A stretch of 64,000 nt of DNA. Origin: a virus. How positions within the stretch are numbered: position 1 is the first letter of the stretch; each line of letters begins with the position of its first letter. The position numbers were made by a program, and so were the translations under genes. Where the stretch lies: IMG/VR virus record IMGVR_UViG_3300037424_002120, positions 1-64,000 of that record. One strand, 5' to 3'. Under the pieces are notes generated by a model. It was not told the origin of the DNA. It did no database searches and saw only the letters and a list, made by a program, of their open reading frames with translations. Positions 19,242 to 60,915 of this stretch are shown piece after piece.

Positions 19242-19309
19242 GGCCGCAACGGTGGGATTCGAACCCACGTCTCTCGTCTAGAGCGGATTACCACTTTCCT
19301 ACGTGCTGC
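19242..19309 (-). tRNA. Degenerate tRNA or tRNA-like element
   Basis: Perfect T arm GUGGG-UUCGAAU-CCCAC and D-arm-like GGA-AAGUGGUAA-UCC; bulged acceptor stem, only a 3-bp anticodon stem, no CCA. Confidence 0.55.
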
Positions 19310-19469: not shown

Positions 19470-20640
19470 GCAGTCCTGACATGCTGTTGTTATGCACTTA
19501 ATTCATGAAATGCAGCAATGAAATATGAAAAATACATTCTTGTGGTGAATGTTTAATAAATGGTTGTTAGGATGACAGTATCTTCAAAATTTGCTAGCAA
19601 AGCCTCAAATTTTGCGTCTACCATACAAGTTGCTTGTCCTTATAAGTTTAATAACGTGCAATAGAGACTTAACATGGTTAGACAGGTTTTCTAATTGCAA
19701 CTAACGATAATTTCTTGTGATTAGGCCTAAATTTAAGCTCAAATTCTAACAATTTGATAATTCTTCTCAAAAAGAGGCGAGAATTATTGCTGTCGGGATG
19801 ACTGCATAAAAAAGAGGATAGATAAACACACAAGCTAATATGCTTATCTATCCTCTTGCAGATTATATAACTGCTTATTGAATATCATTCCTAAATTGCA
19901 TACGTGGAAGTCCGTCAGGCAGTTTACCGTTAAAGTAGACAGGTAAGATCACTGGGACATAGAACAGATCCCAGAAGTTACTGCAATCACCTGCATATAG
20001 ATTTTTGTAATGTGCAACGTTGTGTACCTCGCCTGTTATTGAGTCTACAACGTGACCTACATCAATGGTGTTCTTTTTGTTGTAAACATGCTCAGGTACG
20101 ATCAAACAATCTTTGAGTTGTCCTGAGCGATCTCCTCTCAACCAACGAGGGAAAAACTTTCCATAACTAATATCAATCTTAGCACGTTCGTTAGGTTTCA
20201 TACCACCAAGATTGATATAGATTAGCTTCGTTAGCACGAATGCAGAAATTGAATAATACCCAGGTTTGATCTCCTTTGCGTTAATTAATCTGAGCTGCTC
20301 CGCTTCCTCTGTCCAAGGATAGATTCTCACTTGCTCTTGCTGAGACTGTTTTGCCTCTTGTACTTCAAAGTAGAAGTCTACGAGATCTTCGTAGAACTCC
20401 CACGCCTTTTGTGTTGTAATCGATTTTGCATGCAATGCAGCTCCTCGCTTTGTCCATAGATAGAGAGTTTTTGCATGTTTCGCACCATCCTCAAAATGAA
20501 GACGGTTCAAAAAGTCCGCTTTTTCCTTGCCTTCGAGAGCAAAGTAGTGTTTCCCTGCTACAAAGTGCTCTTTATTGCGAATATAATTCTGGGAGACAAT
20601 TTTCTCGGTTGTCTCGTAAGCTTCTGCAATTTGTCCAGTG

Positions 20641-21896
20641 GTCATGAACCCCATGCATAAATGCAGGGGCTTGTAGCTAGGCGCGTCCTGCTACGATAGG
20701 CTGCATGACAGGTACAGCCCGGGAGATGTTTATGGCTGCGTTCCGATCTGCGTTATCAGAATGCCCACACTTTTTACAGACAAAGGAGGCTTGACTCTTG
20801 CGATTAGCTTTCTCACAGTGCCCACATGCTGAGCACGTACGGGATGTATTTCTTGGGTCGACCGTATACAACGGGACACCTGCAAGAGCAGCTTTGTACG
20901 AGAGGAAGAACCGGAGTTGCCAGAATGACCAAGAGCTATGCATCGGACGCAGGACCTTCTTAACCGTGCGTTCCAGTCCTTGACGGGACCGGATGTGTCT
21001 TAGATCCTCGATTGCAATTGCTTGTCTATGATCTTTTGCCTTCTTGACAATATGTTTGGAGATAACGTGGTTTGTATTTTTCCTAAATCGGGCTTCCCTC
21101 CCAGAAAGTTTTTTGAGATGTCTTTTTGCCGACTTGGTGCCTCGTTTCTGAAGATCAGAGCGAAGTCTCAGCATACGCTTGCGAGTCTTCTCAACAGCTT
21201 CCCCGCTAAAGGACTCACCTTCGGAGTCGGTGGCAATTTGGATTATGCCCAGGTCGACTCCGAGCGTGCCTCCTTCCTCAGCCTCGTAGGGCTCAGGAGC
21301 GGGAACATCAAGCGTAACGGCAAGGTAGAAGGTCCCATTACGATAGAGCAAATCGGCTTGTCCCTTGATGGCATTCATACGGGATTGCTGGTAGCCGCCC
21401 ATCCTGAACGGGACAATCACACGTCCCTGCAATGTCAGGAGGGAAACCTCACTCAATCCTTTGAATGCCATCAGGCGCTCATCGTAGGTTATCGCACCTT
21501 CAGATCGAAACAACGGCTTGATGCTCTTATCCCGCTTGTAGCTATCGACTACCTTGCTGATGGCACGGATAGTCATTTGAGACGACAAGCTAAAGCGCTT
21601 GCGGATATCGCCATAGACCAGCTTCTGAAGCTCAAATTTGTTTGCGAGCTTCCATTCAAAAGCCGTCTGGGCAATATCGTTACACGCATCGTTGAACGCA
21701 TGCATCGTCTCAAGAAGAGCAGTATGTTGTTCTGGCGAAGGTGCCAGTTTCAAGAGCATTGTTTGTTTCATGCAAGGATTATACCACCGTTAGAGCGTTC
21801 TTGTCAATACCATTCTAATGGGAAGATTTTCGCGTCTACGGGTGCCTTTCTTACCTCCCCATGGATAAATCCAGGGGCTTCCCGAAAGGACTCCTG
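20641..21896 (-). mobile_element. IS200/IS605-family element carrying TnpB only
   Basis: Inserted 3' of TCAC; left hairpin CCCCTGGATTTATCCATGGGG, right hairpin CCCCTGCATTTATGCATGGGG, ends TGAC; no target duplication; excision restores the host frame. Confidence 0.9.
20677..21771 (-). CDS. tnpB: TnpB RNA-guided endonuclease with intact catalytic residues
   Basis: GVDLG, AIEDL and NADRNAA RuvC motifs; CSAC/CKKC zinc finger. Confidence 0.95.
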   Translation of the reverse strand: MKQTMLLKLAPSPEQHTALLETMHAFNDACNDIAQTAFEWKLANKFELQKLVYGDIRKRFSLSSQMTIRAISKVVDSYKRDKSIKPLFRSEGAITYDERLMAFKGLSEVSLLTLQGRVIVPFRMGGYQQSRMNAIKGQADLLYRNGTFYLAVTLDVPAPEPYEAEEGGTLGVDLGIIQIATDSEGESFSGEAVEKTRKRMLRLRSDLQKRGTKSAKRHLKKLSGREARFRKNTNHVISKHIVKKAKDHRQAIAIEDLRHIRSRQGLERTVKKVLRPMHSSWSFWQLRFFLSYKAALAGVPLYTVDPRNTSRTCSACGHCEKANRKSQASFVCKKCGHSDNADRNAAINISRAVPVMQPIVAGRA

Positions 21897-29888: not shown

Positions 29889-29983
29889 CAGAGGCCCTAA
29901 ATCGCCATTGCACTGAGCATGTAGAATAGACAGCTGAGGATTGCGCTTTGCAGTCCTCTCGCTAGCAAAGAAAGGACAACACA

Positions 29984-31521: not shown

Positions 31522-31935
31522 ATGAATACAGATAGATTACAAGTGGGTAAAACCAGATGGTGCCATTACATGATCGGGTACCACTTGGTTTGGATACCCA
31601 AGTACAGGAGAAAAATCTTTGTGGGAGGAGTTGAAGCGGAAACAAAAAAGCTGATTGCAGCATGTTGTGAACAGCATGATGTGACACTTCTTGCGCTCGA
31701 AACGGATGTGGATCATGTCCATGTGTTTGTGAGTGCTCCTCCTCGCTTGAGCCCTTCAACGATTGCGGGACTGCTCAAAGGGTACACATCACGGTATCTG
31801 CGAGAGAAGTTCCCACATCTCAAGAAATTGTGTGGGAAAGAGCATTTGTGGTCAAGCAGCTATTATGTTGGCACGGCTGGGAGCGTTTCGGCGGAGGTCA
31901 TTCGCCGCTACATTTCTGAGTGCCAGGGAAAGTAG
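31522..31935 (+). CDS. tnpA: Y1 HUH transposase TnpA
   Basis: YHLVWIPKYRR, DHVH (HUH), LKGYTSR, LWSSSYY, RYI. Confidence 0.97.
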   Translation: MNTDRLQVGKTRWCHYMIGYHLVWIPKYRRKIFVGGVEAETKKLIAACCEQHDVTLLALETDVDHVHVFVSAPPRLSPSTIAGLLKGYTSRYLREKFPHLKKLCGKEHLWSSSYYVGTAGSVSAEVIRRYISECQGK

Positions 31936-32212: not shown

Positions 32213-33368
32213 ATGATGGAACTCCAAGACATACAGCAAGAGATGCAAAAGTGCAAAAAGTATGATCCAGCAAAAGCACACGTAAAAGCTGACGCGCTTC
32301 TGAGCGAACTGGCAACGCTACTAGCATCTCGTATCGATGTTGAAACGCAGCAAAAGACGCAACAGATTATACAGACTTACGATAAAATCAAGAAGTGGTA
32401 TGCTTAGCTGAAAGGATACACAGCCATGCACAGTTATGGAGGTCATCGGCAACATCTGGGAGCACCAAACCCTCCTAGACAGCACTGAGCAGCCCGACAA
32501 TACCCAGTAGTCAATGTTTGCACCTAGTTTTGTATTGCTCAGCAAAGAGGCTTTAGATTGCCGCTAGGTGCCAAAATCTCGGCAAAGTGCTCAGAAAATG
32601 CGAGAAAACACGGCAAAACATTTCAGTTTTTGCCGACAAGCCAGAAATCTGCGCAGTACTGCGCAAAATGTCACCAAAAGTACTATAATGCAGGCATGAT
32701 TTGGCAAAAGGCACACAGAATCGCGGGAAAACAGAATCGATTGCCGCCTAAAGCCAAGAAAAGAAAGGACACAACATGCAAAGCAAAACAGTAATGACAT
32801 TACAGTGCGCATTAACATTTCATCCACGAGTGATGTCATATGATGCAAATCATGAGACGCCTGCTTATGTTGTAATTGAGAGGTTTTACAGGCACTTTGG
32901 TGCTGATGTGCTGGACTCGTGCGTTTTTAGCCTGGCCGTCATTAGAGAAGGAAAACTAGAAGAGAGTATGATGTTCTTCAATTACGAAGAATTAGAGCAG
33001 GGATTGATAAAAAACGTGCACGGCGGGCGTGAGATCTCTCTCGGAGAGCATTGGACAGCAACTCAGTGAGAAAGGACATTGTGACAGAGAAGCAACGAAT
33101 AGCAGCAATTGACGCGCTTGCAGAAGAGTTGCTATTCCGATGGAAGAGAAGCACATTTTGTGGATATAGCACTGAGGCGAAAGAATGCCTCAGAACTCGT
33201 ACAATTAAACAGTTGCGTACACTACATGAGGATGGCAATCTCAATGCAAAAGATGTGTATGAGTTCTTGATTACAGGATATTGGCATAATGCCACAGAAG
33301 AACAGAAGTTGAAGTGTGAGAATGCAGTACAAGCGATGAAAGAAATTCTAAAAGAGGAGACAAATTAG
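32213..33368 (+). CDS. Small hypothetical genes (32213-32407, 32558-32794, 32776-33069, ~33081-33368)
   Basis: Co-oriented, some with GAAAGGAC SD sites; ends at a bidirectional terminator near 33372-33412. Confidence 0.55.
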
Positions 33369-35114: not shown

Positions 35115-35996
35115 CTAGTGAGCTTCTAACCACACAACAACATTATCAAACTCCTCAATTAGTCTTGCAACATTATACATGAAGTCGCTTCCTTGCGTAT
35201 TTGCATCCATAATATCGCTTATTCTACTTCTGAATGCATTTACTAACTCCCGATGAAACCACAGTGTGTTGGTTTTTTGCTCACTGACATCCCTGCCAGC
35301 CTTCTTGAAGATATTGTAGGCCTCATCGCCTTGCTCCTCTACAGAAGGCACAAGGTCATCCCGTGCACTTTGCAGCTTGTCGGCCACGGAGATCAGCAGA
35401 GCGCCGACAGAGACCTCACTGAGATGATTGAGATAGGCACGCTTCCGATCGAGCCAAGGTGCCTTCTCTTCGCCCCCTGGGCCTATCTCAGTGCATTCCT
35501 TCACGAGATCGAGGACTTCCTGGCCATAATCTCCGCATCCTTCTAAGATACGCCTCTCAGGGTCTCTTTGCGGCTGGTCCTCAAGAGCATCATGCAGCGC
35601 GGATGCTGTAATCATCGCCACAGATCCTCTTGCCATCTGGACCATGAGAGCAACCTTAGAGAGATGCTCTTCGAAGTAGGACTTCCCTGTCCTCTTGCGT
35701 ATCTGTCCCCTGTGCAGTTCTTCTGCAAGATCCATACCCATACTGGGAGGAAGATCCTTCCCAATCACCCAAATTCCTTTTTTATGATCAAAATCTATAC
35801 CCTTATCTACATGCCTATCTGCCCACTTCCTTGCAATATCTTCTCGTATTCTTTCATCATCGGAAGAAATTCTAGAAGACCAATTCTTATTCATATAAAC
35901 GAGCACATCTTGCTCGTTTAGCACTTGAGGAAAGGCCGCATTCATTTCCCGACTTATCGCTTGATACCTAGCTTCAAATTCTTTGCGTCCCATCAT
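35115..35996 (-). CDS. HD-domain hydrolase, RelA/SpoT hydrolase (SAH/Mesh1)-like, with an N-terminal extension
   Basis: HRGQIRK..G.SY..H..KVA, ALHDALED, ADKLQSARD. Confidence 0.85.
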   Translation of the reverse strand: MMGRKEFEARYQAISREMNAAFPQVLNEQDVLVYMNKNWSSRISSDDERIREDIARKWADRHVDKGIDFDHKKGIWVIGKDLPPSMGMDLAEELHRGQIRKRTGKSYFEEHLSKVALMVQMARGSVAMITASALHDALEDQPQRDPERRILEGCGDYGQEVLDLVKECTEIGPGGEEKAPWLDRKRAYLNHLSEVSVGALLISVADKLQSARDDLVPSVEEQGDEAYNIFKKAGRDVSEQKTNTLWFHRELVNAFRSRISDIMDANTQGSDFMYNVARLIEEFDNVVVWLEAH

Positions 35997-36260
35997 CAAA
36001 AATCCTTTCTGAGTACCATTCTGGGTGGTAATACTTGCCGTCCATTTCACGTGTATAAGGCCACACGTGGACCTCTCCACAGGGGGATACTTCTACATGT
36101 ACATTGTCCAGCTCGCAAACGCAATCCTCGCCAATGGATGGACTGCATTTGCAATCTGATATTATAACTCCGTCATGCAAAACTTCTTTCAAAACTTCTT
36201 TAGTATGGTTGTTCATGTTTTCCTCGTTGGTGATGTTCCATTTTTCCGATGGAACATCAC

Positions 36261-36674
36261 CAAACGTCCTTTCTGGATACCCCTGCCCTTTAGGCATGGG
36301 GAGGAATGAAAGCATCCCACAGGCTGGAAAATCGGTTGTATATCCTACGAGTTGTAGGAAGTGGTGGCTGACATTGTGAGTGCCACAACGGGCGTTACCC
36401 GTGCCACCATCAGCCAGTTACGGCGCACTGCTTGCGCAGGTAATGGTTGCCTCGACAAGGTTCAAAGCGGTTTAACGCTGCAAGCACTGGCACTAACCCT
36501 CGTCAGCCTGTTTAACCTGCAGCCGTAGAGCATCGGGCTGGCACGCACCCTATGGTACCTATTTCGCCATGAACGTAGTTTCTGTTTCAAAACTGAGTCT
36601 GGTCAGGTGAAACCGTTAGCAACCCGCGAGCGGATTACTGCAAGCCCCTGCCCTTTAGGCATGGGGTCCCTGAC
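36261..36674 (-). mobile_element. Non-autonomous IS200/IS605 (IscB-type) element, 414 bp
   Basis: Identical CCCCTGCCCTTTAGGCATGGGG hairpins at both ends; TCAC target on plus strand; ends TGAC; no nuclease ORF. Confidence 0.88.
36425..36674 (-). ncRNA. Standalone IscB omega-RNA (HEARO-like) scaffold
   Basis: GACCAGACUCAG...AACUACGUU...AUAGGUACC..GGGUGCGUGCCAGCCC..GCUCUACGG...UAAACAG...CAGUG...AAACC...AACCUUGUCGAGGCAACCAUUACC series of motifs. Confidence 0.85.
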
Positions 36675-36942
36675 ATTCTATTCGATTGCCTAGCACGCCA
36701 TGGGCTAATTTCATGGCCTTGTTGAGGCCTCTCAGCCAATCAGATCTTAGCTTGTCTGAATTTCTTGGACCATCTCCTGTCCAATTTTTGTTCATAAAAT
36801 CGAGTATCTCTTGCTCGAATTCATGAACTTCCTGAAATGCTTTCATTTTTGGGAAATTATTCATCAAACGTCCTTTCTTCTATCAAGCCTACAATTGGCT
36901 TGCGCCTGCCGATTACAGAGCAACCGGCAGAAACTAACCAAT

Positions 36943-37494
36943 CTACTGCACTCTCCACAGGCTAAACTTAATTGCTGCATTCTCTACCGTCTCGGCGCTG
37001 TGGACCTCACCCTCTGCAAGGCGAGGTAATTGCGCCTGAATGACAATCAGTTGATCACCGCTTTGGAGAGACACTTTCGGTGCTCTCTCTGGAATTGGAA
37101 GATCGATCCAGAATTTACGCTTGATGGCATCAATTGTTGATGCGTGTGATGGATTAAGAGCAGAAACTACATTAGACCCTTGCAGGGTTGTTCTTACTCT
37201 ATCATGATTGATAGAGGTTTTTACCATCGACGCCTCATCGGGAAACATTGTGTCTGATATTGCTAATGAAATGAATGTTGTCATTGGATTGACCTTTCTC
37301 TTTTGTCTATTTTGCTGGTACCGTGCGTACCAAGCAATGAAATCTGATTGATCAACTGCGTACATTCTGCCCCATGGGGACTTGTGAGCTTTCAGCCCCC
37401 ATGGCTTGCCTCTAAAGCCATCGCGTATCGCGTTATTGAGTACGTTGTGTGATATACCGTACTCAATAACATAAGCGGCTACAGGCCGCTCCAT
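36943..37494 (-). CDS. acrIII-1: HTH fused to an AcrIII-1 (DUF1874/STIV B116-like) ring nuclease
   Basis: From M71: ISLAISDTM...SHAST...SLQSGDQLIVIQ...RLAEGEV...IKF with the catalytic His retained; internal SD GAAAGG before the ATG at 37284. Confidence 0.8.
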   Translation of the reverse strand: MERPVAAYVIEYGISHNVLNNAIRDGFRGKPWGLKAHKSPWGRMYAVDQSDFIAWYARYQQNRQKRKVNPMTTFISLAISDTMFPDEASMVKTSINHDRVRTTLQGSNVVSALNPSHASTIDAIKRKFWIDLPIPERAPKVSLQSGDQLIVIQAQLPRLAEGEVHSAETVENAAIKFSLWRVQ

Positions 37495-37913
37495 TAAAAT
37501 CCCTCTGTTCTGGCCTTCTCAGAGGCCCTTTCTTTTGCTTTTAGGACGTTGCTCACAAGGCGCACACGACCTTTAAGGTCTGTTTGCCTGAGACCCACAT
37601 CAACGGTAGTCTCAAGGACCTCCTGGATGCTATCGACCTCGTAGACTTTGTGGAATTCAGATTTATCAGCTCCTCTAGGGCCTGTACGGCCCTTGCCGAT
37701 AATCTCAAAGCGCGTACCATCAGGAAGCTCGAAGATGGTTTCGACCCATGTCTTACTTTTGTCGTTGCTATCATACCATCGGGTATTCACGACGTTTTTC
37801 TTTACTTCGAACATCCTCTTCCCGTCATGTTCACCCCCAACAAATTTGGATACGACACTGGCAGAGCTGGTTGTGTGGCTCTCTGAGCCGGTTTCAATTA
37901 AAATTTTTGTCAT
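37494..37913 (-). CDS. Hypothetical protein, first gene of the acrIII-1 operon
   Basis: SD AGAAAGGA; stop overlaps the acrIII-1 start. Confidence 0.7.
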   Translation of the reverse strand: MTKILIETGSESHTTSSASVVSKFVGGEHDGKRMFEVKKNVVNTRWYDSNDKSKTWVETIFELPDGTRFEIIGKGRTGPRGADKSEFHKVYEVDSIQEVLETTVDVGLRQTDLKGRVRLVSNVLKAKERASEKARTEGF

Positions 37914-37929
37914 CAAACGTCCTTTCTGT

Positions 37930-37991
37930 GTTTGTAAGTCACTCAATCAACTTACAAACGAAGTATAGCTCCATTTGAGTGGAGTTGTCAA
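37930..37991 (-). promoter_or_regulatory. Promoter with an inverted repeat in the spacer and a 5' hairpin
   Basis: TTGACA-18-TATACT; CTCCA-N6-TGGAG in the spacer; GTTTGTAAGT/ACTTACAAAC hairpin just downstream. Confidence 0.75.
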
Positions 37992-38060
37992 TGATAAAAC
38001 GTGTATTTCATGCAACTTTTCGGAGCCTGTCAGACCCGTTATACACGTACGTTGCGGACA

Positions 38061-38100
38061 AAAAAAAAAAAGAGAGGTAGCCATCAACTACCTCTCTTTT
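38061..38100. terminator. Bidirectional intrinsic terminator
   Basis: A-tract, AGAGAGGTAG/CTACCTCTCT stem, T-tract. Confidence 0.8.
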
Positions 38101-38110
38101 ACTTCAAATG

Positions 38111-38851
38111 TTATTTGAAGTACTCATCTGCATGAATAAAATCAACACCAGCCGCCTTTGCAGCTTGCTCATCCTCATCACGGTCACCAACCATCAGCGT
38201 GTCCTCTGGGAGGATATCCGCGTCATTCATAGCCTCCCACAGCATCCCAGGACCTGGTTTACGCCTGTCGCTGTCTTCTCTGTATTGATCAAGAGAGGCT
38301 TTGGGATGGCTATAGCAGACATAGAGCCTGTCAGGATAGACACGAGCCTCTATGCACATCCTGGTCAGCTCATCCTGGATATCCTGAGATTTCATATATC
38401 CGAAAGCAACCCCACCTTGATTGGTGGCTATGGCGACGATTATTCCGCTATCGATCAAGGAATGGATCCTCTGAAGACGGCGTGGGAGCCACTTCCAGTC
38501 ATTGGCAGATTTACGGAATGTTTCACCGCTTTTGGTTCTAACTAAAGTACCATCTGCCTCAGATATGACCAGTTTGTACGTCTTCAAGCGTGTTGTTAAT
38601 CCCGTCGTTTCTGGAACTTTATACACATATTCACTCGGAGCCACGTACTTTGACCAGTTACTTTCCTGAAATTTTTGCATTCTCTGTTCCTTCGTTTTGT
38701 CTTGTTCTGCTCTTTTGGCAAATTCGATCAATTCTTTCGAGAAATTTGCCAAAAACCCCATTTGCTCTTGAGAAGACAATAATCTTAAATGCCCTGCCAT
38801 GACTTGAAGTATAGCATTAAGCTCCAAATCATCTGGGATGTCTTGTTGCAT
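38111..38851 (-). CDS. HAD-IIIA phosphatase (polynucleotide 3'-phosphatase/GmhB-like) with an N-terminal extension
   Basis: EADGTLVRTKSGETF...DW, TNQGGV, RRKPGPGML, MVGDR..D..AA..AG. Confidence 0.85.
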   Translation of the reverse strand: MQQDIPDDLELNAILQVMAGHLRLLSSQEQMGFLANFSKELIEFAKRAEQDKTKEQRMQKFQESNWSKYVAPSEYVYKVPETTGLTTRLKTYKLVISEADGTLVRTKSGETFRKSANDWKWLPRRLQRIHSLIDSGIIVAIATNQGGVAFGYMKSQDIQDELTRMCIEARVYPDRLYVCYSHPKASLDQYREDSDRRKPGPGMLWEAMNDADILPEDTLMVGDRDEDEQAAKAAGVDFIHADEYFK

Positions 38852-39170
38852 TGTGTTATCCTTTCTAATGATGCTCATCATGGATACATTCACCGTCCTT
38901 GAAAACACGATAGCTTCCTACACGCTCATCCACCGGAATACGTTCCAATTTATTTATGAACTGAAAACGAGACATGGTATTTGCTTTTGCTTCGTGATCA
39001 GGTTTAAACCCTTTTGCAGCTAAATCACTCAAAACGGATGAAACGTTCTTCTTATCGACAATGATTGAATGCTTGTACACTGTGTTGTCCTTTCTTTCCT
39101 CCTTGCAAGGGGTGCTATACAGGGAAGAAATCGTCGGGCGCTTCTTGCTCAGGAGTCAATTCTAAGTCAT

Positions 39171-39219
39171 CAAACGTCCTTTCTGGATACCCCTGCCCTT
39201 TAGGCATGGGGTCCCTGAC
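39171..39219. mobile_element. 49-bp solo-hairpin derivative of the IscB-type IS
   Basis: TCAT|CAAACGTCCTTTCTGGATA-hairpin-TCCCTGAC; left and right ends identical to the 36261-36674 element and fused at one hairpin. Confidence 0.85.
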
Positions 39220-39224
39220 GGTGT

Positions 39225-39512
39225 CTACCTTTCCTGGTCATCTAGATCAAGAGCGTCAATTGCCGCATCAACTCTTCTGACTTTGAGTGGGGCCTTTGAT
39301 GGCTCTTTCTCAATCTTCTTTATTGACTGTGGCTCATAATGGTGGACAGGAAGCGCTTGGCTAGAGGACTCTAGCCAAGCGATCACGATGTAACGGATAA
39401 CTTCTCCCCGTGTCGTTCCCATCTTAGAGCAGATGGCATCCAGTTTGATGAGGGCGTCTGAACCCTCATCAAACCAAGTGCTTACTCGTACTCTCCCTCG
39501 TTTAAGCGGCAT
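39225..39512 (-). CDS. RHH DNA-binding protein (ParR-like adaptor)
   Basis: RVSTWF...LDAICSKMGTTRGEVIRYIV; overlaps the parM stop. Confidence 0.7.
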   Translation of the reverse strand: MPLKRGRVRVSTWFDEGSDALIKLDAICSKMGTTRGEVIRYIVIAWLESSSQALPVHHYEPQSIKKIEKEPSKAPLKVRRVDAAIDALDLDDQER

Positions 39513-40587
39513 AAGTCACCTCCCATATAGTAGCCTTTCTACGTTGGAGAGAGGCGGCTATATCCGCATATCCAAGGGCATTAGCAATCTCTGGTCTGCT
39601 TACAACCTCCACTTTGTTGGTGTCAATGATCTTTCGAACAATCTCCTCAAAGTAGTAAGCACCACCCCCTGCAAGGAAAACACGGTCATACTGGGCGGCT
39701 ACTACTTCCCCGTCACTCGCAAGGTTCTGGCTAATAAAATTCCGAAGCGATCTGCCAGCTCTACGGATAGAGTCGGCTATAGTGCTTTCAATCTCACTCC
39801 CGTCTATACCGTAGGTGGTCGGACACGTGCGACTTTTAACATAAGATCTAAGCAAGCTATGAGATTTACGCTCAAGCCCAACCTTTCTCTTGACTCCAAA
39901 TGCTACCAAGTCATCAACAATCTGCCCGACTCCTAACTCAATCCCTACGCATTTATTGATCAATATTTTTTGTCCGTCTGCAACAATAAGATCAATAGTG
40001 CGCTCCCCGATATCAATAACAACCTGTTCATCATTGCTGTCACCACAGTGGATGAGTATTCCTTGTCCCTCAGTGGCCACATGCCCAACCTTTATAACAG
40101 CCTCTCGTGGCATGCCATTAAAAGTGAACTGATAGCGGTTCTCTAGAGAAGACTTAACTCTTTTTCTGTTCTCATTTGAATAAAGAGTAACAGGAAGAGC
40201 CGTTACGAGCCTTAACTCGAAAGACTGGTCAGGGATTAGAGTTGCTGCAAGCGTCAGTAAAAGGACTACAGAGTGCTCAGACCAATAACGATTTTGATCC
40301 CCTAAAGCAGCAGTTGCCCGACCTTTGATCCCCTCCCTCACAAGTTTACCTAAGTAGTAGTTTGTATCATTAAAGTTGAGAACATATTCATCGTCTTCAA
40401 TTACCTGTGAAAGATGAGGATCGTCCTCTTTACCGCGAGTAAGGAGCTTAACGATATCTCCTTCTGAAATGACAGAAGGGATTGTTTTGATATCCACGTC
40501 ACCATAAGATGTGGCAACTGCAAGCGTTGCATCTCCGCTTCCTGGGTCAAAACCTGCATAATAGACAGGTTTACGAGGACTGTACAT
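39502..40587 (-). CDS. parM: ParM/StbA-family actin-like ATPase
   Basis: GFDPGSG, LVTALP, EG.G, VIDIGERTID, LAGGGA, ANALGY actin-fold motifs; SD AAGGAG. Confidence 0.9.
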   Translation of the reverse strand: MYSPRKPVYYAGFDPGSGDATLAVATSYGDVDIKTIPSVISEGDIVKLLTRGKEDDPHLSQVIEDDEYVLNFNDTNYYLGKLVREGIKGRATAALGDQNRYWSEHSVVLLLTLAATLIPDQSFELRLVTALPVTLYSNENRKRVKSSLENRYQFTFNGMPREAVIKVGHVATEGQGILIHCGDSNDEQVVIDIGERTIDLIVADGQKILINKCVGIELGVGQIVDDLVAFGVKRKVGLERKSHSLLRSYVKSRTCPTTYGIDGSEIESTIADSIRRAGRSLRNFISQNLASDGEVVAAQYDRVFLAGGGAYYFEEIVRKIIDTNKVEVVSRPEIANALGYADIAASLQRRKATIWEVTYAA

Positions 40588-40607
40588 GTATTTTTCTCCT
40601 TTGTTTT

Positions 40608-40768
40608 TAAGTACGCTCTCTGGCGTACTTAGTTTACACTTTTCTTGATTTCTATGATCCAGTGAGTAGTTTCTACTCACTTTGTGCGCTCTATAGCGTA
40701 CTTAGACTATACACTACAGGATTAGTGTTGTCAATAGCGCACTTTCTACCTACTTTCTACTCACCCTC
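40608..40768. repeat. Degenerate 11-bp repeats around the parM promoter (parC-like centromere)
   Basis: TAGCGCACTTT/CTACCTACTTT/CTACTCACCCT in tandem, plus TGGCGTACTTA, CTACTCACTTT and TAGCGTACTTA; promoter TTGACA-17-TATAGT (40734-40706). Confidence 0.6.
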
Positions 40769-41370
40769 TTCCTGGCAGCTTTCTTGCGTTTCAAGCCAGC
40801 GGCTCTCTCTCGCTTGTGGAGGTCAAGCTTGCGCTCCCTATGCTCAAGAGCTGCTCGCTTGCGGTATCCGGCCTGTACCCGCTTAACCGTCTTGTGAGCG
40901 CTCTTGACAGCCTTGACGGTGCCTTTTGCTGTACGGGCAATAGCTTTACTGGTGGACTTAAGAGCCTTAACGGCAAAGCGTCCAAAACGGTCCCTGGGGT
41001 GCTGACTTTCCTTGTAGGCACCACCTTGCAAGGGGGATGCTGCTTTCTTGGCAGTTGAGGGATGGGCTTGCTTTGCCCTTGGAACTGTCCGATTTTTGCG
41101 GACAGTTCGATTTGCCACCCACTCATCACGTGCAATCTCCGATGGACTCCGATGATCAGGAAGCTTGCGGCCTGGCTTCATGGGCAAATCGGACATGCGT
41201 CCCATGAAGCGTATACCTTCTTGCCTTTCATGCTCTTCTACGCGCATTCGACGATATTTTGCATCGATGCGTTCCTGTTCCTCTTCACGAGCAATTTCAC
41301 GGAGAGTTTCCCTGGTTCGAAGGGAATCCCTTCTGATTTCTTCATGGGATCGTGGATCGTAGTATGCCAT
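40750..41370 (-). CDS. Highly basic hypothetical protein
   Basis: Arg/Lys-rich with an HPRDRFGRF motif; follows the FtsK-like gene. Confidence 0.6.
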   Translation of the reverse strand: MAYYDPRSHEEIRRDSLRTRETLREIAREEEQERIDAKYRRMRVEEHERQEGIRFMGRMSDLPMKPGRKLPDHRSPSEIARDEWVANRTVRKNRTVPRAKQAHPSTAKKAASPLQGGAYKESQHPRDRFGRFAVKALKSTSKAIARTAKGTVKAVKSAHKTVKRVQAGYRKRAALEHRERKLDLHKRERAAGLKRKKAARKRVSRK

Positions 41371-41373
41371 TAT

Positions 41374-42942
41374 TTAAAATCCTTCCCTGTCACAAATGTG
41401 TTTTACGACTGGGTAAAACTTGTTATTGCGGGGTGGCTTCATTGCCATTGGGATCTTTGCGCGAGTTACTTTGCCGTCAAGGATAAACTGAACCCGCGCA
41501 ATCTCGATAATTTGCATTTCATCGTCTAGTGAAAACTGGGGAATGCTTTCACTGCTCTTCACAGCTTCATTCACCGTGCTTTCTGGCATTCTCAGAAAAT
41601 CTTCATCGACCGCCGTATCTGCGGTGTCTGGTGAAAGCGGTGAATGCTCGTGAATGCCGCTGTAAGGCTCAGTGAAAGACTCTCTCATCATCCCCAATCT
41701 CGCCACTTCTTCGAGCGCCTTCTCGTCGGGATATGGCAGCTGCATGCGGTAGGTAGTAGCATTTGGCATGAGGATAATTTCCCCCCTTTGCAAGCTTGGG
41801 GCCTGTTTTGCGTCCTCAAGTTCCAGAATATTCTGTGCTCGCTCTTTTCTCAGATTGAAAGAAACAATAGCCATAGAGTCGCGCACTTCTGTATTTCCTG
41901 ATCGTGTAGCTTTCGGTATCTGTCCAAAACAGATAACTCTACACCCCTTCTTACGGCCTCGTGTTGCGTACTCTTCTGACATATCCAATATCTCTTTGCC
42001 AACGTCAGCCCACATCTTGCCCTCTTTGCCAGCATGACGCGCAATCAAGGTGAATTCGTCAATAAGAACAAGCAGCTTGTTATTACCGTATTGCTCTATA
42101 ATTTGCCTCGCAATGGATACTGCCGTTTTTGCTTTGTCTGGCGTATCTGCAATCGGGCAAAGCATGAAAGCCTCTTGAGCCAGGGGACCTAATCGAGTCG
42201 TGAGGGACTGATCAGCTTCAGACTCTGGGTCAATCACAATGATCTTTCCGCCTTGCAAGATGGTTAAGGCTGCTAAGTAGGTGCCAAAGGTACTTTTGCC
42301 ATATCCTTGATCCCCAAACACAAAGACCGAATTGAAGAGGTTCCCTTGCACATCAAAAATCTTTGCACGGAACGGCTCTCCATCCATGTATCCAATGATG
42401 CTCGTATCTTCATTGGGGCTTGTTGAGCCAAAATTCAGCTGCTCTGAAAGAGTAAAAGCCTTTGGGGCTTCCAGAAGCCGAACATCATCTTTCTCCTCCT
42501 CCTGATTAATGTTGTACTCATTGTTGTTAGTTGATCCTGTCTTAGGATCTGTTGAGCGCTGCACAAAGTCGCCATCAACATACTCCGCATTAAATCCATA
42601 TAATTCTGAGTTGCGCACTGCAATGCTAGTATGCTTGTTTAATGCCCCTATCTTGGCTAGCCTTTCAAGCTTCCAGATCTTATGCTTGTCTTGCTTTACA
42701 TGCCAATGCCATCCAAGGCAGCACAGGCCATAGATAGCAAGAGCACTGCATACAAAAATGACGGCGCCTCCGTGCTCTTTCCACGCCCACTGCACAAATA
42801 GATATGCGAGAAAAAGCAAGATTGTGAGCAAGATACCAATGAGCAGCACAATCTGCTGTACAGCACTGGCAAAACCATGGTGAAAACCGCTTGACGGCCC
42901 GCTCTCTCGATATTCATCGCGGTGCCTATATTCGCTAGTCAT
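41374..42942 (-). CDS. Membrane-anchored FtsK/HerA-superfamily ATPase (TraB/SpoIIIE-like)
   Basis: Two N-terminal TM helices, GDQGYGKST Walker A, IDPE, LIDEF Walker B, GRKKG, Q sensor. Confidence 0.75.
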   Translation of the reverse strand: MTSEYRHRDEYRESGPSSGFHHGFASAVQQIVLLIGILLTILLFLAYLFVQWAWKEHGGAVIFVCSALAIYGLCCLGWHWHVKQDKHKIWKLERLAKIGALNKHTSIAVRNSELYGFNAEYVDGDFVQRSTDPKTGSTNNNEYNINQEEEKDDVRLLEAPKAFTLSEQLNFGSTSPNEDTSIIGYMDGEPFRAKIFDVQGNLFNSVFVFGDQGYGKSTFGTYLAALTILQGGKIIVIDPESEADQSLTTRLGPLAQEAFMLCPIADTPDKAKTAVSIARQIIEQYGNNKLLVLIDEFTLIARHAGKEGKMWADVGKEILDMSEEYATRGRKKGCRVICFGQIPKATRSGNTEVRDSMAIVSFNLRKERAQNILELEDAKQAPSLQRGEIILMPNATTYRMQLPYPDEKALEEVARLGMMRESFTEPYSGIHEHSPLSPDTADTAVDEDFLRMPESTVNEAVKSSESIPQFSLDDEMQIIEIARVQFILDGKVTRAKIPMAMKPPRNNKFYPVVKHICDREGF

Positions 42943-45900
42943 ATCCGATGTTCCTCCTCTCTTTTTTTTTGATATTGCACCAATAAGAACTTAATCATCA
43001 ATAAAAAACATTTTACAACCGTTGCTGCTCCTATTAACCAATTAATGATCTCTACTATAATGCCAAATATTGCAATAATAATGCTTATAATAGCTTGAAA
43101 TATCTGAAATATAGCGTTACTACATATAAATCCACCTGAAAATAATTCTGATATAATCGCTTCTTGCTCTTTATGAGCAGATAAATGATTAATCATGATT
43201 TTTGTCCTCCTGAGATATGGAATGGGCGGGATAAGCTTATCCCGCCCATGAACTTCCTGCTATACGCATATTCTTATGCTTGACATATCAAATTTATCAC
43301 CTGGAACAAGATGTCGCGCACTCCGCTGTAGTAGAGTGCGTGCGTCTTCGGTTGTCGCGCACTCTACTACAGCATCTCCCACCACCTCACCTTTCTCATT
43401 CACGATCAGAACTTTGAATTTCTTGTTGACTGTGCTCATTCTTATGCTCCTAACGCTGAATAAGATCAAGAGAAGCTTGCAGTAGAGCAAGAATTGGATG
43501 ATGCTCATCTTCATTGCTTTCGGTCGACGATTTCAACAAAACGCTCTCTATATCTCTCTCTCGGAGATGCTTTGTTACACAAAAAGTATTTACTGCCGTT
43601 TCCTGGTCATCGGCAAGCCACTCGTACCGCTTTCCTTTGACTGTGAAGATAAATCTTTGCGAATATGACCCCCTCTGGGGTGAAGGAATGTATTTTGCCA
43701 TCTTGATGTCCTTTCGTGCTAAAATGCACAGTAGCTAGCCGCCAATGAGCGAGCGAGCATGCGGTGATGAGAGGCGCTTTTCTAGGGCATTCCCTCTCAT
43801 CACTTCTTCTTCCAAGTTCTTTTACGCGTTAAATACCACATTACGGGAACGAACATAATAAGCGCGTACCACGCTAAACCGCTCATGCACTCTTCCCCTT
43901 GCAAGGGGTGAGGAAGTGCGACGCGGGCACTAATTGCTTGCAATCGGGGCACCGAACTGTGATAATCTTGCGCCCGATTGCAATGATACGCTTACTGTCT
44001 TTCTTTTGCATATTTACCTTTATACCTCTTTTCGTCCCTAAAGCGTTCGACATACGATGGTACGCGGTCAAACTGGCGTTGAGAAGACTGGATAAGCAGC
44101 TCTTCAGCGTGCTCATCGCAGATCCCGTGTGAATTATCCTCGTCAGAGCACCATGCACACGGCTCTTGTTTCGTCTTGATCATCAAGCGTCCTTTCTAAT
44201 GCGGGAAATGAGAAATTGACATAAAACACCTGCATAAACCGCAATAATAACCAGAAGTCTCATCATGGTCATTAAACGATTTGATATGCTCTCTCGACTT
44301 AAACGAGAAAGCCTTATTGTTTAAGTCTTTATTCCACTCCTCAGTTGATATAGAGTCGTCTGAATCATATGGTGCTGGTCTTCGTCCTAGCATGTTTTAC
44401 CTCTTTCTGTGGTGTGATGAAATGTAGCCGTAAAGGGACGGCCCGCCCACTAAAATTTTATCTACGGGATTTCAAATGATCTCTCATCTTCGCGATACGC
44501 TCTTGATGCATCTGTACTCCGATAGCATCGCTGTGATGCTCTGCTTCCTTCTTGAAGAACTCTTGCTCTTTTACGCGTTTTGCAAGAGTTTCGTCTGTTA
44601 GGAGGTGATCCTTGACGGTTGGGTATTTTTTCATTTGGGTTTCCTTACTGTATCAAGAGCCGCGCTTAATCCTTCGTGTACCTCTCGTGACTCTAGTGAG
44701 CCCGTTTCTGACAAAGTCCTGTTCGCCCTTCGCTCCATACGATTGAGTGTGCTCTCACTGAGAGTACCATTCTGTACTTTCTCTACGGCAGTATCATGGA
44801 TGTGGTCTTGTAAGTTTTTTGTCATGTTAACCTCTTTCTGCTCATTGAGCACTATTCGGGCATTTTTACCCGTTCCAGGTCGCTGCGATTGTAACGACCT
44901 GAGTCGATAAAAACACGCTACTTGCCGCACTTCATATGCTGCATTTGCAGGAATGCAAACTTGCTATTCTCTACGGAATAGAGATTAATCAAATCTACAA
45001 TAACACTTTTTAATTCGGCAATATGGGCCATGGCCTCTGGGTTGGTCGAAGTCTCATTAAGACCTCTTTTTGTGAACTTCTCTGAAGATACATTATACAT
45101 TGTATGTATCTCATCTAGCGTCTTACTCATGCAGCTTACTTATCCTAAAGTGCTGCGATACCTGCCTTCAGCTTGGCTATTTCTTTAGATATCTTTTCTC
45201 TGTCTTTTAGCCACGACTGCCTCTCATTAGGCCCCACGGAACTCTGCGCAAATCTGAATGTATCCGCGTGTTTTTGTTCCAATATGAGGATCTGTTTCGT
45301 TAATTCTTTTTGTGTTGGTAACATGGTTTCTCCTTTTGTGCTGTTTATCAACATTGTGTCGATAATTGGTGGCTGTAGCATGAACTACGCGCTGTCTTTA
45401 GCAGTGCCACCTTTACAAGCCGCACGACTTCAAGTCTGCTATACTTGTTGCGAGAGCTTCAATTCCAGAAAAATAGGGAGTTGAACATTGTAGCGTGGCA
45501 GTGCGTTAGCTGCTTCTTATCTCCGCTTCTCACCTGGAATATCTTATATTGTTTATGATCATTACTCAGCAAAACGATGCTTGCTGGCTATTTAACGCAC
45601 TACGAGAACTTTCCCATAATGAGCGACGAACATCTTGAGTGCTCCGAACGGCGGTCCGTTGTCGCTCTATGGACTATGCTGTTGCCCAACCTCGTGGTGA
45701 GATGTGGATATCAGCCTCCGCTCTCAAGCTAGAAAGAGCGGCAAGGATCTCGTCCTCAGTGAGAATACAATTCTTCCTGATGTCCTCCGAAAACGCTTCG
45801 TTGCCTTTGTCCTGGAGATATATAATGACCTCCAGTACTGTCACCTCATCGTCTGTCATCTGTCTTGTCATGTCTTTTTGCCTCTTCTTTACTTTACTTG

Positions 45901-59659: not shown

Positions 59660-60915
59660 ATGTATATATCCGAGAAAAACATGCAAGGTGTCCCAAAAGA
59701 GGGATTATGTTCGAGTTGTGGGAAACCATGCAAGACATCAACTGCCTCAGTGCAGTTTATCCATCAGGAATGTTATGATGATTCATTCCGTAAGGATATG
59801 CGGAATTCCATTCTGAGAGGCATAGCAATTTTCAATAAATATGCCCCGAATTGGAGAGAGAAAGTTCGTCCGTGTCTTCCATGTCGTCCCCTATATTTCA
59901 TTTCCTGTATATTCGGTGGATCAGATGAAGCAAGGAAATCGATCCCTGAGTTGGCCCGTGCATGCAGCGCGGGAAGAAGAAGTATGCGTGGAAGAGGAGA
60001 GACCCTCGCCCAGGAGTCTTTCTTTAGTGAGATGGGACTCATCCTCTATGAAGATGATCTCGATCAATCTGATCTCCTAAGAGAAATGTGGCAGGAGGCC
60101 ATCGAAGATCCAAATCTTGAAAAAGTTCTTCCTCCGCCTCATCGCGGTCATTTTGTCAAAGGCCAAAGAGGAGATGCGGTTTGTTTTTGGTACGGAAATC
60201 TCATCGGTATTCCCGATAAACGGGGACCACAACCAAAAGACGGGGAATGCTGGGAGATACTCGACGAAAATTTGTCAGGAAGAGTGTTCTTCCTCAAGAT
60301 TGGGAAGAAAATTGAGAAAGAACAGGATATCTGGCGTCATTGGATGTAGTCTCTCGTTTGGTTTCATCTCGGGTGCGACGGGATGATACGAGTCGAGTGG
60401 CTCGATTAGTTGAAGAAAGAAGGTACAAATGTTCTATATTGTCTCAATTAGTTGGTGGGCAGCATCTAGGTCGGACGATAGAGTAAGTGTATATTTGGAG
60501 AGTGCATCCTCTCCAGAGGACGCACAAAGACAATCAAAGCAAAGATTGTCCTTCATCAAAAATCCTTTCGAGAAACCCCTCGCTTTAGCCATGGGGTATC
60601 TGACCGCAGATGCTGAGTTTTCAGTGGATGATCACATCTTCGATATTGCGTCCAAATCTGTCCAAGCATCCAATGTTGGTCTTGTCTACGGGATCGAGTA
60701 GACAAGAAAGAGGTAAAACAATGATCAGCTACAATGACAGGATTATCCTGGATAATCGGTTTGCTTACTATCTGGATGCAGAAGGCGTTATCTTCTGCTA
60801 CGAATGTGGATATGATCAAGCTGAGCAGCTTGATCGAATCGAGAACAATGCTGGTCCACAACCGATAAAATGCTCTATATGTGGATATGATGTTCCACAT
60901 GTAGATCGTCATTAA
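59660..60915 (+). CDS. Hypothetical genes (59660-60349, 60429-60701, 60721-60915)
   Basis: Promoter TTGACA-17-TATACT (59578-59606); SD sites. Confidence 0.6.

Follow-up and report, generated by a model that had tools for sequence, protein, structure and literature searches.

Left ends of ISC-type insertion sequences at start codons and a possible source of recurrent ribosome-binding-site spacers in a viral contig

The DNA analyzed here (the window) covers the first 64 kb of the 95,482-bp IMG/VR virus record IMGVR_UViG_3300037424_002120, which is linear, ~87% complete, and 44.8% G+C. An initial annotation of the window had proposed that an insertion sequence (IS) targets start codons and supplies a replacement ribosome-binding site (RBS), and that decayed IS ends were domesticated as the translation starts of several phage genes. 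The 18-mer at the center of that proposal, AGAAAGGACGTTTGATGA, is by its sequence the outward-reading left-end tip (GAAAGGA-NN-TTTG) of an ISC/IS200-IS605 element followed by the N|ATGA target of that element. The element family was strongly associated with real start codons; this association and the resemblance of the left end to an RBS are both well supported, and four phage gene starts that carry the 18-mer without the hairpin of the element are probably the scars of lost mini-elements.

On the minus strand of the window, exact copies of the 18-mer occurred at 36861-36878, 37910-37927, and 39167-39184, copies with one mismatch at 36257-36274 (GGTGA) and 44180-44197, and a copy with two mismatches at 35993-36010. 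Compared with these six matches at two or fewer mismatches, 100 dinucleotide-preserving shuffles of the window yielded none, and the recurrence of the 18-mer at several gene starts, as first described, was thus confirmed with three exact and three near copies. A seventh copy with three mismatches, missing from the initial list, was located at 60553-60570 beside a variant hairpin. The hairpin preceded the 18-mer at 36257, 39167, and 60553, and none was present at 35996, 36864, 37913, and 44183, the four of which are plausible gene starts. The hairpin-bearing 18-mers at 39167 and 36257 do not begin a gene: the frame at 39167 reads M-T-stop, and the one at 36257 opens a short frame that runs into a hairpin.

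The hairpin-bearing copies belong to three elements, all on the minus strand. Copy B (36261-36674) is a non-autonomous ISC/IS200-IS605 element of 414 nt without an IscB open reading frame (ORF), and it splits one ancestral gene. In the direction of iscB and its omega-RNA, the order of its parts is GTCAGGGA, hairpin, HEARO scaffold, ~140 nt, hairpin, 19-nt linker, and GTGA. The HEARO RNA (36440-36674; Rfam RF02033), which is the IscB omega-RNA scaffold, begins at the right end and matched the full model (1-211) with 132.4 bits against a gathering score of 83 (E = 3e-27). The right end (36645-36674) consists of the 8-mer GTCAGGGA and an imperfect hairpin (36645-36666), with the 5'-GTCA terminus published for ISC elements (PMC4810608), and the left end (36261-36301) consists of a hairpin (36280-36301) and the 19-nt linker TATCC-AGAAAGGA-CGTTTG, which points outward to the target tetranucleotide GTGA (36257-36260) within a coding frame. 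The same 22-nt hairpin, CCCCATGCCTAAAGGGCAGGGG, is present at both ends in direct orientation, without terminal inverted repeats, and stands directly upstream of the 18-mers at 36257 and 39167. Its predicted structure contains a bulged A, and in the predicted fold of the copy B left end, GCUUUC upstream of the hairpin pairs with GAAAG of the linker.

Copy E (39171-39219) is a solo mini-element of 49 nt made up of the right-end 8-mer, one hairpin, and the 19-nt left-end linker, with the target ATGA at 39167-39170; its right-end flank reads GAAAGG-TAGACACC, and removal of the element would result in a normal arrangement of Shine-Dalgarno (SD) sequence and spacer. Copy G (60557-60604; target ATGA at 60553-60556) is a diverged solo mini-element of 48 nt composed of GTCAGATA, a variant hairpin, and the linker TTTCTC-GAAAGGA-TTTTTG, and a candidate ORF of 40 amino acids follows its ATGA.

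In pairwise comparisons of 14 element copies, similarity ended 3 to 5 nt past the linker tip, i.e., after (A/G)TGA, and the element junctions at five loci (L051, L046, L057, L060, and L030) contained no repeat and hence no target duplication. The first reading of the junction, an IS end followed by its target as ...CGTTTG|ATGA, agrees with these limits. The right ends begin with GTCAGGGA, GTCAGATA, GTCAACAA, or GTCAGGAA, and the left ends are followed by ATGA or GTGA, as compared with the published ISC group, which has 5'-GTCA termini and N|ATGA or GT|GA targets, the N|ATGA families being ISC1-1_MA, ISC2-1_HM, and ISC2-1_MS (Kapitonov, Makarova & Koonin 2016, PMC4810608). A boundary closer to the hairpin with a long target was also considered and rejected, as the linker varies freely among lineages and its spacing and tip are kept. 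In silico excision of 36261-36674 fused the flanking ORFs into one 158-amino-acid frame, the second half of which was 97% identical to P0036, an uninterrupted 106-amino-acid protein of another contig that reads through the site. Because excision restored the ORF and an uninterrupted relative exists, copy B must have entered an internal GTGA cleanly, with no duplication. The N-terminal half (36655-36864) of the split gene (35974-36864, minus strand) ends five codons inside copy B, and the C-terminal half (35974-36216) restarts at an internal Met with an SD of its own. IscB (PF14239) had no match anywhere in the 95-kb record, so the window copies are non-autonomous derivatives and not full ISC elements; for the omega-RNA-only copy B, any nuclease would have to be supplied by the host.

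The placement of the family in bacteria was assessed in 81 Ktedonobacteria genomes with a pattern that was hairpin-free and did not require an SD, which gave 42 matches compared with 1 for the control. A total of 30 loci were fetched for the 42 matches, and 29 sites were scorable. An ORF of at least 120 amino acids opened at the ATG past the left end in 18 of these 29 sites, versus 16.2% of 550 other ATGA sites in the same loci (binomial p = 3e-8). All 10 of the start-site genes tested were real, with the first domain beginning at residues 3 to 19 in 7 of them; among these 7 were the genes for MutS (domain I), LacI, NadE, a protein kinase, GH3, and FGE-sulfatase. Left ends thus adjoined true start codons much more frequently than expected by chance. 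A phylum-wide search tied to one hairpin sequence gave three matches only.

Another scan, of metagenomes, demanded GAAAGGA and yielded 23 loci representing ~15 independent sites with many different covarying hairpins. The ATG past the left end was the N terminus of FtsH (662 amino acids), RNase PH, a PfkB kinase, and two HTH_3 proteins, with Pfam domains running from the first residues. Rfam found no HEARO in the metagenome elements, the interiors of which are of another scaffold type, and a Chloroflexia metagenome-assembled genome (L011) contained a complete relative with HEARO, IscB (RRXRR and HNH), and the same end layout.

Furthermore, a displaced native SD was found at the right-end flank in the five loci named above and at copy E of the window. 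A normal SD lay 4 to 10 nt from the right-end junction (AAGGAGG-AACG in L051 and GAAAGG-TATCTATCA in L057), and in L051 a mini-element identical to copy E stood between AAGGAGG-AACG and the ATG of a helix-turn-helix (HTH) gene. With an SD at the right-end flank and an ATG at the left end, these elements are placed exactly between the SD with its spacer and the ATG.

The end that faces the gene is itself suggestive of an SD. Many left-end lineages carried an SD-like motif (GAAAGGA, GGAGA, or GGAGG) at one and the same place, 5 to 6 nt ahead of the ATG, and GAAAGGA was found in SD position, 6 nt before an ATG that is the true N terminus of the FtsH, RNase PH, PfkB, and HTH genes. In full elements the motif also has a complement upstream of the hairpin with which it can pair, and the resulting stem covaries (GACCTGC/GCAGGTC in L011 versus CTTTC/GAAAG here). 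A linker kept purely for this stem was considered and set aside, as the covarying stem explains the pairing and not the recurrent SD-like content; an SD motif peculiar to the phage copies was dropped as well, GAAAGGA-type ends having been found in soil metagenome contigs. It is plausible that the end acts as an SD, a role that is consistent with its position and is not universal among the lineages. The idea that the IS supplies a replacement RBS is thus supported in its positional part, the end motif being at the RBS position and the native SD displaced to the other end, whereas its functional part is one that we infer.

From these placements the following course of events can be proposed. On the strand cleaved by the transposase, the element would insert 3' of TCAT; on the other strand, the end would read hairpin, T-N-TC-NN, GAAAGGA, NN-TTTG, and then the ATGA of the host. 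Since ATGA is very often a start codon plus A and the elements run in the direction of the genes, many copies would come to lie, to the base, between a native SD with its spacer and the ATG. The native SD would be displaced 48 to 415 nt upstream, the SD-like motif of the element would arrive ~6 nt before the ATG, and this motif would most likely keep the gene translated. In the phage, a mini-element inserted at the ATGA of a gene would later be lost by deletion between its CAGAAAGGAC and the identical SD of the gene, and the residue would be the native leader and SD, the CGTTTG of the element as a new spacer, and ATGA.

The four hairpin-less copies, all on the minus strand, are at the starts of genes designated A, C, D, and F. 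The copy at 37910-37927 opens the 139-amino-acid gene D, the first gene past a terminator and a TTGACA/TATACT promoter; that at 36861-36878 opens gene C, the N-terminal half of the gene split by copy B; the variant AGAAAGGATTTTTGATGA at 35993-36010 opens the 293-amino-acid HD-domain gene A and overlaps the 3' end of the preceding ORF; and the variant ...CGCTTGATGA at 44180-44197 opens the 63-amino-acid gene F. The last 17 nt of the gene A variant, GAAAGGATTTTTGATGA, are identical to copy G, and over its full 18 nt the variant matches the left-end linker and target ATGA of a metagenome element at L039/L040/L053 and L055. In addition, residues 17 to 45 of gene C are paralogous to residues 28 to 56 of gene A (BLASTP E = 2e-6; 35880-35916 versus 36781-36817, 81% DNA identity over 37 nt), so that two of the motif-carrying genes have an N-terminal module in common.

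Leaders with and without the motif could be compared in the DNA of G002, an IMG/VR contig that is a mosaic close relative, and for gene A at the protein level. The gene D product of G002 is 89% identical, and the promoter, leader, SD (...ACACAGAAAGGAC), and first codons of its gene D are identical to those in the window, with AAAAACA as the spacer versus GTTTG in the window. Upstream of gene C, conservation extends to AAGAAAGG, and a different spacer and a different gene lie beyond. Because the SD is kept in G002 while the spacer differs, the SD half of the 18-mer is native at genes C and D, and the IS-derived part at genes C (36864) and D (37913) would be a spacer of 5 to 6 nt at most. The gene F ortholog of G002 has AAAGGACGTTTGATGA, likewise without a hairpin. 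At gene A, the C terminus of the relative P0036 (97% identical protein) diverges after ...EWYSER, i.e., after the residues encoded by GAAAGG, and judged by the protein, the relative appears to be without the TTTTTGATG block.

Related phages with IS ends of another type (G003 and G004) contained no copy of the 18-mer within two mismatches. Gene D, searched as a single sequence or as an alignment of three, retrieved G002 and G003 only among viral contigs; further orthologs are known as proteins (P0002, P0004, and P0036); and neither the region nor the element matched anything among GenBank phages or PLSDB plasmids. In G002 (L023), a lone intergenic fragment of 60 nt at ~32700-32760, 95% identical to the interior of copy B at 36363-36422, is by its sequence a further relic of the element. 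A copy-G-type left end was observed at an internal ATGA of a gene F homolog in the metagenome contig Ga0137453_1000093 (L052), so insertions of this IS lineage interrupt genes in related phages as well.

The deletion route was reproduced in silico for gene D. The linker of the mini-element and the native gene D leader have the 10-mer CAGAAAGGAC in common, and when copy E was placed before the ATGA of the G002 leader and a deletion was made between the 10-nt repeats, the product was the gene D leader of the window, base for base. G002 also contains an intermediate state, a half-replaced hairpin with an intact linker that forms the start region of a 66-amino-acid ORF, and further intermediates, as decayed copies, were present in the bacterial contigs L041, L095, and L099. 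These comparisons of sequences favor the explanation that the four hairpin-less gene starts are scars of lost mini-elements, and this explanation as a whole seems probable to us. The proposed domestication of decayed ends as translation starts is accordingly likely in a narrower form, as spacer scars, and does not hold for the SD half of the motif at genes C and D.

A competing explanation, unlikely in our estimate and yet the best of the alternatives, is that the CGTTTG type is a native RBS cassette of the phage that spread by recombination at gene boundaries without IS ancestry, the IS end being similar through the SD preference of the host. It draws on the reuse of initiation sequences in this phage, in which AGAAAGGA(C) is the commonest SD (~12 genes) and a second cassette, (A)GAAAGGACAACAC(A)-ATG/GTG, unrelated to the IS end, recurs on both strands at seven to eight genes (sites at 29971, 30180, 32764, 38864, 39093, 53208, 59644, and 27116). 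The mosaic junctions with G002 also coincide precisely with the SD, G002 keeps the gene F cassette without a hairpin, and an unrelated phage (L032) has AAAGGACGTTTGATGA at a gene start, apparently by chance. However, the distinguishing part of the four starts is the xxTTTG spacer together with the A at +4, whereas the spacers of the other AGAAAGGA genes are A/C-rich, and GTTTG plus AT(G/A)A is the tip and target of the whole ISC family, even in bacterial copies without an SD motif. TTTG-ATG occurred at 4 of 178 crude gene starts versus ~0.7 expected, always with AGAAAGGA as the SD and each time with A at +4, and for each of the two variants, CG and TT, there is a hairpin-bearing copy that matches it.

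In the reverse direction, a phage-resident IS lineage would have taken its SD and spacer from a native gene start by recombination or conversion. This is consistent with the 9 to 10 nt (CAGAAAGGAC) that the B/E-type linker has in common with the SD consensus of the phage, which goes beyond a generic need for an SD, and with the frequent lack of this motif in bacterial copies that have the same hairpin. We nevertheless consider it improbable, since GAAAGGA ends with many covarying hairpins stand beside housekeeping genes in soil bacterial contigs, which indicates that the motif is not specific to the phage, and since conversion needs flanking homology at either side, whereas the common stretch is no more than the 9-nt tip and target. 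Chance recurrence of a short SD-spacer-ATG string might account for the two exact matches to the 18-mer in the viral contig scan, for which a rough, uncomputed estimate from collection size gives ~1 chance match, but both matches are in related phages, and with the shuffling result this makes chance negligible.

Several points weigh against the scar explanation and the start-codon role of the ends. None of the three hairpin-bearing copies in the window is at a working gene start, and copy B splits a gene. There is one before-and-after pair, gene D, and its polarity is unrooted; gene A of the near-identical relative seems to start with ATGG, which is not a target, and a simple insertion and deletion fails there. 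The phage also homogenizes other RBS cassettes without an IS. Left ends were at gene starts in 7 of 8 cases with an SD-like linker versus 11 of 22 without one, and the motif may therefore be helpful and not required for parking at a start codon; the metagenome set, having been preselected for GAAAGGA, provides no evidence on the conservation of that motif. Survivorship, i.e., the loss of harmful insertions, can raise the start-codon fraction without targeting, and of the notion that the IS targets start codons it is the strong association with true starts that stands, targeting being inseparable from retention. Survivorship notwithstanding, the tolerance of insertions between the SD and the ATG of such genes still calls for an explanation.

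A wider proposal would be that a lineage of IscB-type elements evolved an outward SD suited to ATGA start codons and that cycles of insertion and SD-SD deletion rewrite RBS spacers in phages and bacteria; we advance it tentatively, as somewhat short of an even proposition. If it is true, translation-initiation regions would regularly be altered by transposon scars, and such scars would also record past insertions.

Classical ISs with outward promoters and self-splicing IStrons can activate or preserve the genes next to them. In those cases, as would apply here, a mobile element lessens the cost of its own insertion; the signal here would differ in being translational, an SD at a fixed distance from a start codon that is also the target. 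Mosaic phages have conserved gene-boundary sequences, and the junctions of the window with G002 at the common SD resemble them, except that part of the boundary coincides with a transposon end. The elements of 48-49, ~175, and ~410 nt keep only their ends, as do the gene-less PATE and REP-like derivatives of IS200/IS605 elements named in PMC4810608, and differ from them in that the solo forms are a single hairpin between 8-nt right-end and 19-nt left-end pieces.

In published elements, the HEARO RNA lies upstream of iscB with the right end as its boundary, IscB elements point in the same direction as the gene that precedes them, and the target-adjacent motif (TAM) of IsrB is NTGA/ATGA (bioRxiv 10.1101/2023.03.14.532601; PMC9581776). 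As in the omega-RNAs of IscB and IsrB (Meers et al.; Hirano et al. 2022), the scaffold abuts the right end, the guide lies outside the element, and the TAM matches the ATGA/GTGA target found here; unlike in those systems, the element carries an omega-RNA only and lies in a phage that encodes no IscB. Published ISC transposons, including ISC2 of Ktedonobacter racemifer, are similar in the GTCA terminus, the imperfect subterminal hairpins, the absence of inverted repeats and of target duplication, the insertion at N|ATGA or GT|GA, the mostly non-autonomous copies, and the presence of Ktedonobacteria among the hosts (PMC4810608). The window copies differ from them in being without iscB and in having an SD-like motif, 6 nt ahead of the target, at the end that lies away from the omega-RNA.

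Membership in the ISC/IS200-IS605 group and the ATGA target were thus already known (PMC4810608). The words "start codon" and "ribosome" each occur 0 times in that paper, and among the papers searched none was found that links ISC elements to start codons or ribosome binding. The unbiased bacterial census, the displaced-SD junctions, and the deletion route that reduces an element to a spacer scar of 5 to 6 nt are what the present analysis contributes.

IscB-type elements are the ancestors of Cas9-type nucleases, and how they persist without harm to the host is a practical question. Start-codon parking, if true, would explain how a host promoter is borrowed for the guide RNA, why the gene is not silenced, and why insertion is tolerated before essential genes like mutS and ftsH; to account for all three, the element has to bring its own ribosome-binding motif. 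A possible end state in the phage is one in which the element is gone and a spacer of 5 to 6 bases is left, and some unexplained identical RBSs of phages could then be read as transposon footprints.

Other mobile elements were also present in the window. A separate IS605-type element comprises a Y1 (IS200-like) transposase gene, tnpA (31558-31935, plus strand), and a divergent tnpB on the minus strand at ~30.4-31.5 kb; this TnpA could mobilize the ISC-type copies in trans, though the ends and hairpins of its own element differ. A second tnpB at ~20725-20922 (region ~19900-21000) adjoins a tRNA (19249-19304), and its hairpins are unlike those of the ISC-type copies.

Two observations concern the surroundings of the family in metagenomes. 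The contigs WNGD01039299.1 and WNFX01330564.1 (L048 and L049) contain a CRISPR (clustered regularly interspaced short palindromic repeat) array with the repeat GTTTCAATCCCAGACGGGCTTCCCAGGCCATTTTGAC, one spacer of which covers the 3' arm of a hairpin, a GAAAGGA left end, and ATGAAGAA; some host has thus taken up a spacer that bridges an IS/gene junction of this kind. A group II intron domain (RF00029, 59.8 bits) was found at 418-496 of L056, a contig from a soil metagenome, with an IS left end a few hundred bases away.

Other features of the window lie between the genes discussed above or next to them. A recurrent GC-rich palindrome (...CCCCTTGCAAGGGG...) was found at gene boundaries at 39094-39114, 41021-41035, and 43890-43910 and also in G002; it is where homology with G002 resumes and may be a terminator or a boundary sequence. 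The gene at 36943-37494, in an operon downstream of a consensus promoter, encodes a protein of 183 amino acids that weakly matched the STIV_B116-like (DUF1874/AcrIII-1-type) family (E = 2.8e-5, just below the Pfam cutoff). The region 39225-40587 encodes a ParM/actin-like segregation ATPase of 361 amino acids, for which no relative was found in the viral contigs, followed by a small ParG-like ribbon-helix-helix protein, and this pair suggests a plasmid-like prophage state.

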